A stretch of 64,000 nucleotides of DNA. Origin: Alphaproteobacteria bacterium. GTDB lineage: Bacteria; Pseudomonadota; Alphaproteobacteria; RF32; CAG-239. Below, piece after piece: positions 25,528 to 31,084 of this stretch. Position 1 is the first letter of the stretch, and each line of letters begins with the position of its first letter. A program made the translations under genes and the position numbers. Under the pieces are notes generated by a model. That model was not told where the DNA came from. It worked only from the letters and a program-made list of their open reading frames with translations, and searched no databases. The stretch spans positions 128,399 through 192,398 of the forward strand of contig JAFUSU010000028.1 of the NCBI GenBank assembly GCA_017467515.1, written 5' to 3'.

Positions 25528-25647
25528 AAAAGTCCGATAATTTATGAAAAATTGACATTTTCGTGAATGACGAAATCTGACTTTGCGAGAATCAACCCCA
25601 CAAAAGCAAAAACCGCCTGCATTGAGGCGGTTTTATAAAATGGTGCC
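25528..25647 (+). repeat. Repeat A copy 2 (divergent; ends with terminator-like hairpin aaaaccgcctgc..gaggcggtttt and aatggtgcc)
   Basis: Shares aaagtccgataatttatgaaaaattg...ttttcg...gactttg with copies 1 and 3. Confidence 0.6.
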
Positions 25648-25732
25648 TCTGAAGTCGAATGACAATTCGCAAAAAAGTTTGCTCATTGTCGGCTTCATCC
25701 GCCTCGCACTTAAAAGGCTCGGCGACTTCAGC

Positions 25733-26044
25733 TCCGGACTTACGGATTGCTCACGCAATCATATCGTAAGTCCTTTTTTATCTCCGATACGCATTAACAA
25801 AAATCCCACCTCTAGGGTGGGATTTTTGTTAATGGTGCCGCTGATAAGAAGGTGCGCGCGTTTCACACGGCGCATCTTTCGCTTACGCTCAAGACCTCGG
25901 ACGCTTTGCGCCTCGTCCTCCGCGGTTTGAAAATATCCAAACCGCTACGTCGGACTTAACAATGCCCCCGTAAGTCCTTTCCCTATCCCCGATACGCATT
26001 AACAAAAATCCCACCTCTAGGGTGGGATTTTTGTTAATGGTGCG
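25733..26044 (+). repeat. Two tandem GC-rich tRNA-derived units (cggactta..cgtaagtcc..ccgatacgcattaacaaaaatcccacctctagggtgggatttttgttaatggtgc) separated by a GC-rich spacer
   Basis: Unit 1 25733-25848 and unit 2 25951-26044; each contains a copy of the tRNA T-arm (cgtaagtcc), an 8-bp-stem terminator hairpin and the tRNA 3' end (ggtgccgctgataaga in unit 1). Confidence 0.7.
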
Positions 26045-26095
26045 CGATACTATACGAGTATCGGACTAATTTTTATGATGAATATAGGAAGCTGA
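26034..26095 (+). repeat. Repeat B copy 2 (leader upstream of the 150-aa ORF)
   Basis: See copy 1. Confidence 0.7.
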
Positions 26096-26169
26096 AAGAT
26101 AAGATTGAATCATTTTGAAATAATTGACAAAAGAAGGAATACAATATACAATAAATTATTATCTAATAT

Positions 26170-26622
26170 ATGGAGGAAAATCCCATGGTAGTATTTATTA
26201 AAGAAGAAACACTTAAATCTTCAAAAGAAAATGCTCTTCCTGAAACAGATTTACTGAAGCGCTGTACTAAAATGAAAGCATCACAAAATGGAAAAAAAGT
26301 AGAACTGCTAACCAACAATGATGAATTACTTGGAACACTAAATAGAGAAGATGATGCTCATTGTAATTTAGATATTACAAATGGTCATAGCTTGATGGGG
26401 AGGTATATTACCACTAGTGCAGATAAGAAACCCTCTTGGACTATTTATGAGTATAATGAAGCAAAAACGTCAAAAGTGAAAATCATTGATGAGGAACGCG
26501 CTAGAAGATTAAAAGGTCTTTTTAACGATATACGTAATGCGGCAGAGCGTTCATTAAAGTTAGGAAAAGATAGTGTATCTTTTAGAAATAGAAACTTATT
26601 AGATAATAGTCGTAAGATGTGA
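26170..26622 (+). CDS. Hypothetical protein (cargo ORF, 150 aa)
   Basis: ORF preceded by ggagg SD (aatatatggaggaaaatcccatg) and repeat B, followed by repeat A; no recognisable domain. Confidence 0.45.
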   Translation: MEENPMVVFIKEETLKSSKENALPETDLLKRCTKMKASQNGKKVELLTNNDELLGTLNREDDAHCNLDITNGHSLMGRYITTSADKKPSWTIYEYNEAKTSKVKIIDEERARRLKGLFNDIRNAAERSLKLGKDSVSFRNRNLLDNSRKM

Positions 26623-26629
26623 AAAATAA

Positions 26630-26746
26630 AAAAGTCCGATAATTTGTGAAAAATTGCTGTTTTCGGGAACGGATTTATCGGACTTTGTGAGAAGCAATAA
26701 TAACAACAAAAAACCCACCTTTTCGGTGGGCTTTTTGTTAATGGTG
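26630..26746 (+). repeat. Repeat A copy 3 (native tRNA-Thr downstream region with terminator hairpin cccaccttttcggtggg)
   Basis: Abuts and overlaps the tRNA-Thr 3' end. Confidence 0.7.
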
Positions 26747-26814
26747 CCGCTGATAAGAATCGGACTTACGACCCCGTCATTACCAATGACGTGCTCTACC
26801 ACTGAGCTACAACG
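26740..26814 (-). tRNA. tRNA-Thr (anticodon GGU)
   Basis: Reverse complement reads GCCGTTG-TA-GCTC-AGTGGTA-GAGC-A-CGTCA-TTGGTAA-TGACG-GGGTC-GTAAG-TCCGATT-CTTAT-CAGCGGC-A-CCA; clover-leaf with 7-bp acceptor (one G-U), anticodon loop uuGGUaa, encoded CCA. Confidence 0.85.
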
Positions 26815-26855
26815 GCACTTAATAATAAATTTTATTGTCTGTTTTACCTCTGTGC

Positions 26856-27010
26856 CCCGCCCGTCATTACCAATGACGTTCCTTCGGCATCTAAGCTCAA
26901 TGCGGTCGCTTCCGCTTCCCTGTTTCGCTAAGATGTTCCGAAGAACTTGCAGACAAAAATGACATACAGATGTCATTTTTACTTAGCGTTACCACTGAGT
27001 TACAATGGTA
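26856..27010 (-). pseudogene. Scrambled pseudo-tRNA-Thr fragments (5' acceptor/D-arm copy at 26987-27010 and anticodon-arm copy at 26856-26880 separated by ~105 bp of unrelated DNA containing a 10-bp palindromic hairpin)
   Basis: gttaccactgagttacaatggtac vs real ctaccactgagctacaacggcac; cccgtcattaccaatgacgt identical to the real anticodon arm. Confidence 0.6.
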
Positions 27011-28578: not shown

Positions 28579-28608
28579 AAAGGTCGGATTATTTCCGACC
28601 TTTTTTTT
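28579..28608. terminator. Bidirectional terminator between murA and the convergent hypothetical gene
   Basis: aaaggtcggat-tatt-tccgaccttt + T8. Confidence 0.8.
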
Positions 28609-28618
28609 CTAGACTGAC

Positions 28619-29110
28619 TTAACACCGTAAGACGCAACTGTCATCTTCAGTCAATGTAGATACGGAATGCAAAGAATGAACATAGTGCATAAATTCGCAC
28701 TTAAAACTGCCGATATTTCCGTATCCTCGTGCAATATATTCGGCAGCAATAATATCAGCCAAAGATTTTGCATCCGGTTTAATTGACGCTAAAATATTTA
28801 ACTTTCTGATCATCATATCTTTGTATTTGAAGTTATCCTTACCTAATACTTTAATATTTTTGATTTCATCAATCGTTTTGGCAATGTTTTCAGCGTTACG
28901 TTTTATTTGAAATTTAGCAACACTGGCATCATAATTAACTAAGGCATCAAAATTTTTGAGCTGATTTATAATTGTGCTGAGATGTAACTTAGGATGTTCT
29001 GTTTGCAAAGTTTCATACAAAAGAGCAAATAATGCTCCTTTGTTGGTACCGGCTTCGGAAACTTCTTTCAAAAAATCCTCACCGGAAGTTTGTTTCGATA
29101 GAGCTATCAT
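28619..29110 (-). CDS. Hypothetical protein (163 aa)
   Basis: ORF with terminator; no recognised domain. Confidence 0.4.
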   Translation of the reverse strand: MIALSKQTSGEDFLKEVSEAGTNKGALFALLYETLQTEHPKLHLSTIINQLKNFDALVNYDASVAKFQIKRNAENIAKTIDEIKNIKVLGKDNFKYKDMMIRKLNILASIKPDAKSLADIIAAEYIARGYGNIGSFKCEFMHYVHSLHSVSTLTEDDSCVLRC

Positions 29111-29315
29111 AATGCAACTCCTCTCTAAAATTCATAATTATATTTATGAATTCATTATACCATAGATTTAAAGTCATAACAACAACAATTTGTAACATTA
29201 CTGTAACAAATAAACAGATTTTAAAGTCTTTCAATCTAACCGAATGTGGAGAATAGATAATTTTGTTTACATTCGGCTGAAAAATGGTATATCTGTTCAA
29301 ATAAGGGAGTATTAA

Positions 29316-30032
29316 ATGAATAAAATTTGCTATTCTTCGGAAATATACCATTTGGCGGTTGAAGATGTTATATCTTTGCCGGATTCAAACGTATCTCTCC
29401 CTTATACACCTAAAGATCAAGTTATCATTTTGATCGGTAAACGACAATTGTGGAACCCTGATTTTCCGGTACAACAAGATGCTTTGCTTAAAGGTCGTAA
29501 AGTCGTGGAAAAGGCTATTGCTCAGGGAGAGGATTATGTACCGGTACGTATCGCTTTTGAGTCCCGAATTAAATCGTATGATATTATCTCACCGATTATT
29601 CGTAAATTGCGCTATAAATATAATTTGTTCGGTAGCAACATATATCATATGCGCACACAAGAAATCAGAGAAAAAGGGCTGGAAAGAAATTTAAGAACAG
29701 CTGAAAATGCTTATAAATTTTCTAATCCGAAATATAAAATGAGTAAGGCTCAACGCCGTGCGACATATGAAAATCTGCTCAAAAGTATGAGAGAAAACGG
29801 ATATGACGATGCATTTCCTTTGGATATTATGTTGTGTCGTAATATGGGCATACAAGATACTTTAAATCAAGGGCATCATCGTATGAGCGCTGCAATTGAA
29901 TGCGGTATAGAACGGGTATCGGTTGAATTTTGTGCGGCGGGGCAATCGCCGAAATTTTTGCATTTGCTGTTTTATATGGTTGCAAAAATGAATATGTGGA
30001 TTAAACACATCATAAGTGGTTTGAGGACATAA
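29316..30032 (+). CDS. ParB/Srx-fold (ParB-like nuclease domain) protein with unknown N-terminal domain
   Basis: C-terminal QGHHRMSAAIECGIERVSV matches the ParBc/sulfiredoxin/DGQHR-type signature ([DQ]G.HR..AA....G...(I/V)(P/S)V); agggagt SD. Confidence 0.55.
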   Translation: MNKICYSSEIYHLAVEDVISLPDSNVSLPYTPKDQVIILIGKRQLWNPDFPVQQDALLKGRKVVEKAIAQGEDYVPVRIAFESRIKSYDIISPIIRKLRYKYNLFGSNIYHMRTQEIREKGLERNLRTAENAYKFSNPKYKMSKAQRRATYENLLKSMRENGYDDAFPLDIMLCRNMGIQDTLNQGHHRMSAAIECGIERVSVEFCAAGQSPKFLHLLFYMVAKMNMWIKHIISGLRT

Positions 30033-31084
30033 TGAAAAAAATTATTCATATTTCTAATTTTAATTTAATTCGTCTGAAAGGGTGTTTTCAAGTCGGATTT
30101 CCGTTTAAAATTTCAAATGGTCTGATTCGTAACGGATATGCCGTTTTTAATTATCCGGATCGTGATTTGTGTCGTATGTTCGGTTTTGGTCATCAAAATT
30201 GGTTTGCTAAAAGAAAATTAAACCAACACTTAGTGGATTATTGCAAAGTAATGGAGCCGGATGCGTTGTTTATCGGACACGCAGATCTGATAGAAAATGA
30301 AACGATTTTAAAAATCAAAGAGATGTTTCCTCAATTAAAAGTATTGCAATGGAGTTGTGATTGGATTGTCCCGCAAATGGCGGAAAGAAACATTAAGGCC
30401 ATTCAAAGTAAATTGGACGTGGCCGATGTTAATTTAATCAGCACCGGTGATAAAAATCTGTTGAAGCAATTTAAAACAGGCAAAAACCGTGTGGGTTATG
30501 TTCCGAATATGGCTGATGATGCCTTAGAAACGGGCAGGGCATTTGAAACTGAAAATTTACCCTATGATATTATGCTTTGTGCCAATACCGGTCGCCGACA
30601 GTTTTGCGGAAAAGATGAGGAGCTTGAGGATATCATTACTGAAAGCACAAACAAAATAGAAAACTTACGCTGGAAATTAGCCGGACTAAACGGTCAGCCG
30701 CCATTAAACGGATTTGAATATATTCGGGCTTTAGGACAAAGCGCTATGGGCCTCAATCTGAGCCGTGTTAATGACGTTTATTTGTACAGTTCAGACAGAT
30801 TGATTCATTCTTTGGCAAACGGACAGCTTGTCTTTTTAGATAAACGGAATGGTTTTCAAGATATTTTTAGAGATGACGAAGTCGTATTTTATGAAACAAA
30901 AGAAGAATTTTATGAAAAGGTGGCTTATTTTAAAAATAATTCTCGGGCAAGGATGAAAATTGCCTCAAAAGGACATCAAAAAGCACATACGGAATTTAGC
31001 AACGTAGCTATAACAAAGTATATGGCAGACGTTCTGTTTGATGAAGATTACAAACCGCAAAAGATATGGCAGATTATAATCTGA
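30032..31084 (+). CDS. CgeB-like GT-B glycosyltransferase (Glyco_trans_1_2/DUF3880-type)
   Basis: C-terminal pattern YSSDRLIHSLANGQLVF...DEVVFYETKEEFYEKVAYFKNNSRARMKIASKGHQKAHTEFS resembles the CgeB-family/GT-B C-lobe consensus; start overlaps the upstream stop (TAATG). Confidence 0.5.
   Translation: MKKIIHISNFNLIRLKGCFQVGFPFKISNGLIRNGYAVFNYPDRDLCRMFGFGHQNWFAKRKLNQHLVDYCKVMEPDALFIGHADLIENETILKIKEMFPQLKVLQWSCDWIVPQMAERNIKAIQSKLDVADVNLISTGDKNLLKQFKTGKNRVGYVPNMADDALETGRAFETENLPYDIMLCANTGRRQFCGKDEELEDIITESTNKIENLRWKLAGLNGQPPLNGFEYIRALGQSAMGLNLSRVNDVYLYSSDRLIHSLANGQLVFLDKRNGFQDIFRDDEVVFYETKEEFYEKVAYFKNNSRARMKIASKGHQKAHTEFSNVAITKYMADVLFDEDYKPQKIWQIII

Follow-up and report, generated by a model that had tools for sequence, protein, structure and literature searches.

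Known members of the ParB/Srx fold comprise CTP switches of DNA segregation and silencing, sulfiredoxin (Srx) and two amino-acid kinases. SerK of Thermococcus and SbnI of Staphylococcus are ParB/Srx-fold kinases of free serine, and SerK had been annotated as ParB but is actually an ADP-dependent small-molecule kinase (PMC5120207). Noc combines the ParB fold with an amphipathic membrane-targeting helix and couples CTP binding to membrane binding, and a 2025 survey of the ParB-CTPase fold recorded mainly DNA, RNA and mobile-element related partners, with no glycosyltransferase, kinase or phytase among them (PMC12704722 for both). Our literature searches found ParB-fold proteins together with glycosyltransferases only in phage DNA-hypermodification contexts and in incidental mentions. 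On the glycosyltransferase side, the closest described system is CgeB, the spore-crust glycosyltransferase of Bacillus subtilis, a PF13524 member co-encoded with a small partner protein. It reportedly modifies the CgeA protein of its own operon, with weak activity (PMC13577073). PF13524 glycosyltransferases have also been described in lipooligosaccharide outer-core loci (PMC10327509).

The locus described here, found in a 64,000-nt stretch of alphaproteobacterial DNA (the window), pairs a protein of the first kind with one of the second. ORF1 (29316..30032, plus strand) encodes an unannotated protein of 238 aa, and ORF2 (30032..31084, plus strand) a protein of 350 aa. The last base of the ORF1 TAA stop (30030-30032) also belongs to the ATG of ORF2 (TAATG, 1-base overlap), as an earlier note on this DNA had read it, and the GAGGA Shine-Dalgarno sequence of ORF2 lies within ORF1 (30023-30027), the whole forming a translational coupling signal at 30023..30034 on the plus strand. 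In related loci the junction consists of a 4-nt overlap or a gap of 7-10 nt. The placement of the pair between murA and a CNNM transporter was likewise confirmed, with murA upstream (TIGR01072, E=1e-161) and a CNNM/CBS transporter downstream. Synteny with murA, CNNM, HSP20 and uvrB was stable across species, indicating a housekeeping chromosomal setting; these neighbours gave no help in identifying the target glycan.

From its sequence, ORF2 is assigned as a CgeB-type GT-B glycosyltransferase. Residues 213-329 (30668-31018) scored 62.7 bits for PF13524 (Glyco_trans_1_2; E=4.7e-17), where the curated threshold is 25, in agreement with the CgeB-type C-terminus proposed in the earlier note, and nearly all of the 437 homologues retrieved carry the same domain. 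No sequence relative was found in the PDB, and hydropathy gave no transmembrane segment (maximum KD19 0.75). ORF2 differs from CgeB in its non-sporulating alphaproteobacterial host and in having a ParB-fold protein as partner, and no CgeA homologue was detected. A PilZ-ORF2 fusion (P0219), which would support c-di-GMP-regulated exopolysaccharide synthesis, was rejected as a probable chimera or pseudogene because it lies on a 2.8-kb scaffold in which a BcsA-like gene with an interrupting stop is joined to ORF2 at residue 89.

ORF1 matched no Pfam or NCBIfam model, and phmmer and hmmsearch against PDB sequences returned no ParB match. Its AlphaFold model was confident (pLDDT 91.9) and, in fold searches, matched ParB/Srx-fold structures only, with modest scores, the CTP-binding adaptor PadC being one of them. 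The modelled core has the beta-beta-alpha-beta topology of the ParB/Srx superfamily, with G-x-x-R at a helix start. At the sequence level, residues 110-204 matched phrog_21912 (E=5.2e-6) and single-domain relatives of ORF1 matched more than 10 'ParB-like partition protein/nuclease' PHROGs (1e-8 to 1e-4), thus establishing homology to ParB-like families; PF02195 was reached via an ORF1 relative and below threshold (E=0.007). The structural model, together with this PHROG bridge, places ORF1 in the ParB/Srx fold, so that the ParB/Srx signature noticed earlier was borne out, if solely through structure prediction with fold search and through PHROG profiles. Annexin matches to ORF1 were dismissed as chance, their source being the common pattern 'L..S[MI]K..G.D...[IL].I[ML]..R'.

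The protein is a tandem, in which the core that bears GHHR is preceded by an apparently degenerate copy of itself and followed by a hydrophobic helix. The core (approximately residues 105-207; 29628..29936, plus strand), delimited by PHROG, hhalign and fold searches, contains R-x-x-NAY, which hhalign aligned to ParB Box I in register with Spo0J and Srx, and GHHR (G186-H187-H188-R189; 29871..29882, plus strand), whose counterparts in the alignment are ParB Box II and the sulfiredoxin GCHR; weak, sub-threshold SbnI and ParB matches to the core kept the same register. GHHR stands at a helix start, within the motif QGHHRMSAAIECGIERVSV (residues 185-203), and is predicted to bind phosphate. Among 61 sequences representing all subfamilies its conservation is 98% or higher, L080 (GHYR) and P0335 (GNHR) being the exceptions. 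In the model, residues 1-100 (29316..29615, plus strand) resemble a degenerate duplicate of the core, with strands and helices in the same order, and hhalign of the N-half against the C-core gave 88% probability over the opening strand. This domain shows an invariant SSExY strand, with S7, S8 and Y11 unchanged in all 61 sequences, and an LLKGR helix start. The modelled C-terminal helix (residues 213-237; 29952..30026, plus strand) is hydrophobic or amphipathic (mean hydrophobicity 0.4, hydrophobic moment 0.34-0.43), its maximum KD19 of 1.03 being below transmembrane level. True transmembrane segments follow the position of this helix in fusion proteins, and it is possibly a peripheral membrane anchor or a glycosyltransferase-docking helix. 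Two details of the earlier description thus had to be corrected: the motif does not end ORF1, since 35 further residues including the hydrophobic helix follow, and the N-terminal region of ~130 aa described as motif-less does have features, the core beginning at about residue 105 and the first 100 residues resembling it.

Compared with ParB, Noc, KorB and PadC (PF02195, ParB_N), ORF1 has the same fold and alignable counterparts of Box I and Box II, but lacks the HTH, the C-terminal dimerisation domain, Box III and a ParA partner. When the domains of canonical clamps (ParB, Noc, KorB, VirB) were sought, neither an HTH nor any other Pfam domain was found in ORF1, which ends 35 residues past its core, and nothing aligned to the ENLQRE of Box III (ENxxR-type, CTP binding/hydrolysis), in what is an approximate comparison with Spo0J. 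After the last core strand, the ORF1 family has a conserved F-[SC]-A-A-G-x-x-P, where its mini-proteins end. Without HTH, dimerisation domain or Box III equivalent, ORF1 is not a DNA clamp. From Srx it differs by a His in place of the catalytic Cys, by its tandem domains and hydrophobic C-terminal helix, and by having no evident peroxiredoxin partner. Identity to SerK and SbnI is only 11-12%, with no significant sequence similarity to either; the second domain of ORF1 is an N-terminal degenerate core copy whereas that of SerK is a different C-terminal domain, and the genomic context is glycan assembly instead of cysteine or siderophore biosynthesis. As ORF1 falls below the PF02195 threshold, it is invisible to a survey based on that family.

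Among gut and rumen Alphaproteobacteria, 63 species genomes could be evaluated, and in 34 of them ORF2 lay directly after ORF1; two further arrangements link the two families in distant lineages. In a rumen lineage of 60-70% GC, ORF1-module genes come directly after a homologue of ORF2 (29% identity, E=6e-44), and L080/L081 hold members of both families in a FucT-GT-GT2-GT1 cluster. The earlier note would have given up the pair had its genes never been co-conserved; with these arrangements, that objection fails. The pairing is not due to chance, even though much of the adjacency seen among the Alphaproteobacteria of this clade may have been inherited vertically, without repeated selection. Hardly any probability is therefore left to a fortuitous GHHR in an ORF1 that merely happens to adjoin ORF2 and has an unrelated function, a reading to which the lack of a significant ParB match in the Pfam, NCBIfam and PDB HMM searches and the many ORF1 homologues missing an adjacent ORF2 would lend themselves and which is already largely refuted. 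ORF1 occurred without adjacent ORF2 in 29 of the 63 genomes, in some with unrelated neighbours, and most GC-rich loci had no ORF2-type glycosyltransferase, from which it follows that ORF1 function is not strictly ORF2-dependent. Among the neighbours at ORF2-less loci were Fe-ADH_2 with HAD, amidohydrolase with dihydropyrimidine dehydrogenase, and QueH with Sir2; they were not conserved across subclades and were set aside as functional evidence, the G1P-dehydrogenase-like/HAD pair being remarked. At the GC-rich loci without such a glycosyltransferase, the upstream genes were unrelated (HlyD, SBP, MBL, oxidoreductase, symporter, ABC, CotH).

Elsewhere, the ORF1 module was found fused to APH or protein-kinase-like domains, to transmembrane segments, to a rhamnosyltransferase and, behind a transmembrane segment, to phytase-like phosphoesterases. 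The rhamnosyltransferase fusion (L073-L075) is in an operon with GT2, TagF-like and TagD-like genes. Other neighbours of the module included GT4, pyruvyltransferase and another GT, an LpxL-like gene and a fucosyltransferase, and of 46 metagenome loci most had kinase-like genes after it; neither these kinase-like partners nor a 265-aa partner could be named more specifically with NCBIfam. The recurrence of the ORF1 family beside, or fused to, enzymes of sugar and phosphate transfer in glycan synthesis suggests a role for the fold outside DNA biology. Of the two functions offered in the earlier note, these neighbours and fusions favour the surface glycan over a DNA or nucleotide modification.

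In favour of the latter, single-domain ParB-like phage proteins (phrog_21912 and related) are the nearest relatives, by sequence, of the ORF1 core. These ~110-aa proteins matched the ORF1 profile at 1e-24 to 1e-13, have in common with it the pattern SSxVY...R.NAY...GHHRLAIAIELGL..VPVRF, and were located on 25 viral contigs. In addition, the DNA-hypermodification literature treats ParB-like domains and glycosyltransferases together, so that a module for DNA or nucleotide modification, defence or mobile elements might be envisaged, akin to phage base hypermodification. The phage proteins are devoid of both the N-terminal copy and the C-terminal helix of ORF1. However, the two-domain family was not found among 2.9 million viral contigs (IMG/VR), and PADLOC gave no match for ORF1, ORF2 or the neighbouring 163-aa protein. 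These results and the stable housekeeping synteny across species disfavour this option, as do the absence of an HTH or nuclease partner and the transmembrane and periplasmic phytase-like fusions and LpxL and TagD/F neighbours, which do not fit a DNA role. We regard it as very improbable.

Our tentative proposal, for which we would claim something short of an even chance, is that ORF1 and ORF2 together assemble an envelope glycan, with ORF1 close to the membrane and serving either as a nucleotide-dependent phosphotransferase or as a nucleotide-binding partner of the glycosyltransferase. The two proteins would be co-translated as a two-enzyme module at the cytoplasmic face of the inner membrane and would build or decorate a cell-envelope glycoconjugate, likely an LPS/LOS-type oligosaccharide or a surface polysaccharide. 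Sugar transfer would fall to ORF2, as a CgeB-type GT-B that uses nucleotide sugars. ORF1, having no DNA-binding domain, would act as a phosphotransferase, like the ParB-fold enzymes SerK, SbnI and sulfiredoxin, with a nucleotide bound where the GHHR helix begins. It would phosphorylate or otherwise phospho-activate the sugar or the acceptor on which ORF2 works, and its C-terminal helix would keep it close to the membrane and to the glycosyltransferase.

Since the ORF1 module is often fused to bona fide kinase-type domains, it could also be a nucleotide sensor or adaptor and not itself a kinase. ORF1 would then be a non-catalytic, nucleotide-gated switch, as ParB, Noc and PadC are with CTP, that recruits, scaffolds or regulates the glycosyltransferase, or kinases in other lineages, at the membrane. 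The variety of catalytic domains joined to it (APH, PK-like, phytase-like, GT) is as for a regulatory module, NTP switching is the best-known role of the ParB fold, and the amphipathic C-terminal helix of ORF1, the Noc precedent (PMC12704722) and the PadC fold match agree with such a role. Nevertheless, we consider this unlikely: a Box III equivalent is missing, the invariant polar residues (S7, S8, Y11, Y110, D181, GHHR, E123 and R124) and the rigid tandem architecture resemble an active site, and the closest HTH-less ParB-fold proteins, SerK, SbnI and Srx, are enzymes.

A more specific form of the glycan-assembly proposal, itself doubtful, is that the ORF1 family constitutes a new class of ParB/Srx-fold enzymes for envelope glycoconjugates. 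Its members would be either sugar or glycolipid kinases, the first with a ParB fold, or CTP-dependent enzymes activating or transferring a phospho-alcohol. Together with the CgeB-type glycosyltransferase they would add a phosphorylated or phosphodiester-linked group to the LPS/LOS or the surface polysaccharide of gut and rumen bacteria that are abundant and uncultured. If the glycan-assembly proposal is right, an unannotated two-domain branch that PF02195 does not see, wired into glycosyltransferase, kinase and phosphoesterase clusters and physically fused to them in some lineages, would extend the ParB/Srx fold into cell-envelope biosynthesis, and a conserved gene pair of uncultured gut and rumen Alphaproteobacteria would be assigned a role.

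A third gene accompanies the pair. It is conserved and encodes a 163-aa, all-helical protein with an invariant Cys as its final residue (28619..29110, minus strand). The earlier note had called it a convergent ORFan: it is convergent with murA only and divergent from ORF1, and it is not an ORFan, since 41 homologues of it were retrieved from databases and, among the 65 species genomes that could be evaluated, 46 have it upstream of ORF1. This protein, or ORF1 itself, might be what ORF2 modifies, by analogy with the proposed action of CgeB on CgeA. ORF2 belongs to the CgeB Pfam family, the same-operon modification of CgeA, with its weak activity, offers a precedent (PMC13577073), and linkage is tight, 32 of 60 loci having both the 163-aa gene and ORF2 and just 2 having ORF2 without it. 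Yet the 163-aa gene still adjoins ORF1 in 12 species without adjacent ORF2, neither the GC-rich lineage nor L080 has it although ORF1 and ORF2 homologues co-occur there, and distant ORF2 homologues reside in multi-GT polysaccharide-type clusters, all of which makes protein glycosylation improbable. Between murA and the 163-aa gene, a bidirectional intrinsic-terminator-like hairpin (28579..28603; 10-bp stem with 5 GC pairs, T-runs on both strands) marks the left boundary of the module.

The region separating the 163-aa gene from ORF1 (29111..29315) contains the Shine-Dalgarno sequences and candidate promoters of both genes, and alignment of 11 loci revealed conserved blocks in it. Reading of the sequence, combined with conservation in this alignment, points to a candidate ORF1 promoter with a -35 TTTACA (29266-29271), a 16-nt spacer and TG-n-TATATC (29285-29293). 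The candidate promoter of the 163-aa gene is on the minus strand (29182..29154; TTGTTA-17-TATAAT with TG). A direct repeat, TGTAACA-TTAC-TGTAACA (29191..29208, plus strand; 7+4+7, 11-bp period), is a putative transcription factor binding site; this is its sole perfect match within the window, and exact copies occur at the equivalent position in L008 and L021, with degenerate copies at other loci.

The genes for the ParB/Srx-type protein ORF1 (29316..30032, + strand, 238 aa) and the CgeB-type glycosyltransferase ORF2 (30032..31084, + strand, 350 aa) are translationally coupled. The final base of the ORF1 TAA (30030-30032) is also the first of the ORF2 ATG, giving the TAATG overlap reported in the earlier note, and the ORF2 Shine-Dalgarno sequence (GAGGA, 30023-30027) lies within ORF1, whose own is AAGGGAG (29303-29309). 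The placement of the pair between murA (5', TIGR01072, E=1e-161) and a CNNM/CBS transporter gene (3') was likewise borne out. A 163-aa gene (28619..29110, - strand) converges on murA, from which a bidirectional terminator (28579-28603) separates it, and diverges from ORF1. The intergenic region between it and ORF1 harbours a perfect direct repeat, TGTAACA-TTAC-TGTAACA (7+4+7, 29191-29208), the sole such match in the whole window, with exact copies at the equivalent position in homologous loci L008 and L021 and degenerate ones in other loci; this TGTAACA-N4-TGTAACA layout recalls that of OmpR/PhoB-type response-regulator sites. Further upstream, a tRNA-Thr(GGT) gene is located on the minus strand (26742-26816), and several spurious-looking ORFs at ~25.6 kb and ~26.7 kb (window 25580-27000) all encode the peptide VGFLLMVPLIR, whose recurrence suggests repeated tRNA-like or remnant DNA near 25.6-26.7 kb.

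ORF1 is a member of a genuine protein family, with 157 full-length homologues (42-100% identity) found by sequence search. No Pfam or NCBIfam model matched ORF1, no Pfam domain was found among those homologues, and no PDB sequence was matched by ORF1 or by its family profile. An alignment of 35 members revealed 34 invariant columns, including G186-H187-H188-R189, within the stretch QGHHRMSAAIECGIERVSV (residues 185-203). When the predicted structure of ORF1 was searched with Foldseek, ParB/Srx-fold structures came top (E ~1e-2, probability up to 1.0); the scores were modest, and all matches at this level came from that single superfamily. An exhaustive profile search retrieved single-domain proteins of ~110 aa (mini-proteins) aligning to ORF1 ~97-206 (E 1e-24 to 1e-13) and sharing with this core the pattern SSxVY...LR.LG.E...R.R.NAY...ER..YD.L...I...GF....PI.I.L.R...D.I..GHHRLAIAIELGL..VPVRF. 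The mini-proteins matched more than 10 PHROG families annotated "ParB-like partition protein/nuclease" (1e-8 to 1e-4), and ORF1 residues 110-204 matched phrog_21912 (E=5.2e-6), so that the ParB/Srx-type signature previously proposed for ORF1 is now backed by both fold search and PHROG profiles. Against the PDB, annexins aside, the core profile matched only SbnI (E=0.17) and, with E=0.19, Caulobacter ParB, each in the correct register. As a lead only, hhalign of the core profile against sulfiredoxin and Spo0J sequences (pairwise E 5-8e-4) placed GHHR on GCHR and GERR, the latter in Box II, while RPNPYQPR of Box I was paired with R..NAY. By fold and by remote homology alike, ORF1 thus belongs to the ParB/Srx superfamily; it is devoid of the DNA-binding parts, no HTH or dimerisation domain having been found in ORF1 and no counterpart of Box III in the alignment of the core profile with Spo0J, all of them features of a canonical ParB clamp. 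Neither SerK nor SbnI resembles ORF1 significantly in sequence.

The signature had been described as ending ORF1, where in fact 35 more residues follow it, and the N-terminal region, which had been considered free of recognisable motifs, repeats the core. Residues 1-100 show the same strand/helix order in the predicted structure, their opening strand aligns with that of the core (YSSEIYHLAVEDV vs FGSNIYHMRTQEI, hhalign probability 88%), and a helix start "LLKGR" occupies the place of the core "QGHHR", so that ORF1 is best described as a tandem ParB/Srx module in which a degenerate copy at the N-terminus precedes a canonical core. In 61 sequences spanning all subfamilies, S7, S8, Y11, Y110, S157, G162, P168, G178, D181, G186, H187, H188, R189 and F205 were at least 98% conserved. 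ORF1 ends in a 25-residue helix that is hydrophobic and amphipathic (mean hydrophobicity ~0.4, hydrophobic moment 0.34-0.43) but too weakly hydrophobic for a transmembrane segment (maximum KD19 1.03). Mini-proteins were found on 25 viral contigs of IMG/VR (L130-L154) and the two-domain cellular family on none, which suggests that the latter stems from a phage-type mini ParB-fold domain that was duplicated, or that both share a common ancestor.

ORF2 is a CgeB-type glycosyltransferase, as its C-terminus had led the earlier note to propose: residues 213-329, in the C-terminal half, matched PF13524 (Glyco_trans_1_2) with E=4.7e-17. An apparent PilZ-ORF2 fusion (P0219, L129) was discarded as a probable assembly chimera or pseudogene; on its 2.8-kb scaffold a stop codon breaks a BcsA-like cellulose-synthase gene, which reads on into a truncated ORF2-like C-terminus.

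Scanning one genome per species yielded 68 ORF1 loci, nearly all from uncultured gut/rumen Alphaproteobacteria (labelled Azospirillum sp., Candidatus Scatocola or Rhodospirillales MAGs), the two outlying labels being Kiritimatiellia and Bacteroidaceae. According to tblastn with the window proteins, an ORF2 homologue (47-92% identity) lies directly 3' of ORF1 and in the same orientation in 34 of the 63 loci with sufficient downstream sequence, the two genes either overlapping by 4 nt or lying 7-10 nt apart. Within this clade, co-conservation could be largely due to vertical inheritance, and other lineages are therefore more telling. In contigs of 60-70% GC (the window has 38%), the gene order is reversed, an ORF2 homologue (29% identity over the full length, E=6e-44; PF13524, E=1.9e-18) lying directly 5' of, and overlapping, genes that start with the ORF1 module. 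The order LpxL-like/ORF2-like/ORF1-module recurred in L083-85, L089, L090, L096, L100 and L111, among 46 further metagenome loci of this subfamily. In L080/L081 (35% GC), an ORF1 homologue (37% identity, E=4e-42, motif GHYR) lies 2 kb from an ORF2 homologue (46% identity), in a cluster comprising GT10 fucosyltransferase, ORF2-like, GT2, GT1 and ORF1-like genes that adjoins asmA. The two families are thus repeatedly linked, contrary to the possibility that they are never co-conserved. The link is not obligatory: some ORF1 homologues have unrelated neighbours, and an ORF2-type glycosyltransferase is missing upstream in most of the GC-rich loci.

The 163-aa gene, formerly termed a convergent ORFan, is convergent only with murA and is conserved, being found upstream of ORF1 in 46 of 65 loci, on the opposite strand every time and less than 400 nt away in 38. 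Where both flanks could be judged, 32 loci carried it together with ORF2, 14 neither, 12 the 163-aa gene alone and 2 ORF2 alone. Its product is helical, with the strictly conserved motifs NFDALVNYDA and KVLG-x-DNFKYK and a C-terminal cysteine that never varies (C-V-L-x-C-COOH); it matched no fold or family. This neighbour brings to mind CgeA, encoded beside CgeB and, on the basis of weak in vitro data, proposed as its glycosylation target (PMC13577073). By that analogy ORF2 might glycosylate a protein, which we judge improbable, as the 163-aa gene follows the distribution of ORF1 better than that of ORF2 and is missing wherever ORF1 and ORF2 co-occur outside the clade. Many ORF2-less loci (L037-L059) have, upstream of the 163-aa gene homologue, a conserved block with a hybrid histidine kinase/response-regulator gene (~880 aa, PAS domains) and, after it, a gene for an Hda-like DnaA regulator (~242 aa).

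Glycan- and phospho-enzymes populate the neighbourhoods and fusions of the module. A deep profile search, with architectures assigned by Pfam scans and sequence inspection, retrieved multi-domain proteins in which the complete module is followed by a transmembrane segment and a phytase-like PF13449 domain (P0315, P0324, P0327), an APH phosphotransferase (PF01636; P0328, P0332), a protein-kinase-like domain (P0311) or a multi-spanning membrane domain (P0320, P0325, P0331), or is preceded by a rhamnosyltransferase-like PF11316 domain (P0335, encoded in an operon between a GT2 gene and a GT2 fused to a TagF-like glycerophosphotransferase, then a TagD-like cytidylyltransferase). Downstream of the module, the 46 GC-rich loci almost always carry kinase-like (PK-like or APH) genes or domains, and often also a phytase-like domain and an unannotated ~265-aa protein. 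In the GC-rich lineage, a lipid A acyltransferase (PF03279) is encoded upstream of the ORF2-like glycosyltransferase. The ~265-aa protein (N-terminus KVNVLCLKWG..YP.YYVNRLY; L077:3683-4480, L078, L076 and many of L083-L128, just 3' of module genes in this rumen lineage) matched no Pfam or NCBIfam model. The Kiritimatiellia-labelled ORF1 homologue adjoins GT4, polysaccharide pyruvyltransferase and another GT1-type glycosyltransferase genes, and GT2, GT47-like, pyruvyltransferase, GT10 and GT1 genes surround distant ORF2 homologues. A role in DNA modification or defence fits poorly: none of the three window proteins matched a PADLOC defence model, the two-domain family was absent from all 2.9 million viral contigs (the single-domain mini-proteins being on 25), and the locus has a stable housekeeping synteny with murA, CNNM, HSP20 and uvrB; this role and chance association are, even together, very improbable. 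Fusions, neighbours and these negative results place the module, on the strength of context, in the building of envelope glycans or glycolipids, with phosphoryl transfer as a strong theme, rather than in DNA metabolism, and neighbours and fusions favour the surface-glycan option, one of the two suggested in the earlier note for the pair.

We tentatively consider that ORF1 may be a nucleotide-binding phosphotransferase working with ORF2 at the inner membrane, which by analogy seems possible rather than probable. Nucleotide would be bound at the start of the GHHR helix, as in ParB, sulfiredoxin and SerK; phosphoryl transfer would act on the sugar or acceptor that ORF2 handles; and ORF1 would be positioned by its C-terminal helix at the cytoplasmic face. 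SerK, annotated as ParB, turned out to be a small-molecule kinase that depends on ADP (PMC5120207) and offers a precedent. The main rival, in which the module would be a nucleotide-gated adaptor without catalytic activity that steers whichever catalytic partner is attached, draws on how often bona fide kinase domains are fused to it; we regard it as rather unlikely. The closest analogues in possible working include both the kinases SerK and SbnI and the nucleotide-gated, membrane- or adaptor-linked Noc and PadC, as well as sulfiredoxin, a minimal enzyme with this fold whose GCHR corresponds to GHHR.

A survey of the ParB-CTPase fold published in 2025 started from PF02195 and would have missed ORF1, which falls below that threshold; the listed fusion partners (HTH, HNH, UPF0020, DUF3850, DUF4417, DNA methyltransferases, CBS, ASCH and MT-A70) include no glycosyltransferase, APH, protein-kinase-like or phytase-like domain (PMC12704722). 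No ParB-fold protein in glycan biosynthesis was described in the literature searched. The fold is already known; what appears new, judging from genomic context, is the link of a tandem ParB/Srx module, coupled with a CgeB-type glycosyltransferase, to the assembly of envelope glycans, a directly testable association that should surprise specialists in ParB folds or envelope biogenesis. Finally, in ORF2-less alphaproteobacterial loci, ORF1 is directly followed by a convergent pair encoding Fe-ADH_2 (glycerol-1-phosphate-dehydrogenase-like, PF13685) and a HAD phosphatase (L039:10688-12411, - strand; equivalent positions in L031-L059), which may have a bearing on polyol-phosphate chemistry or be a coincidence.
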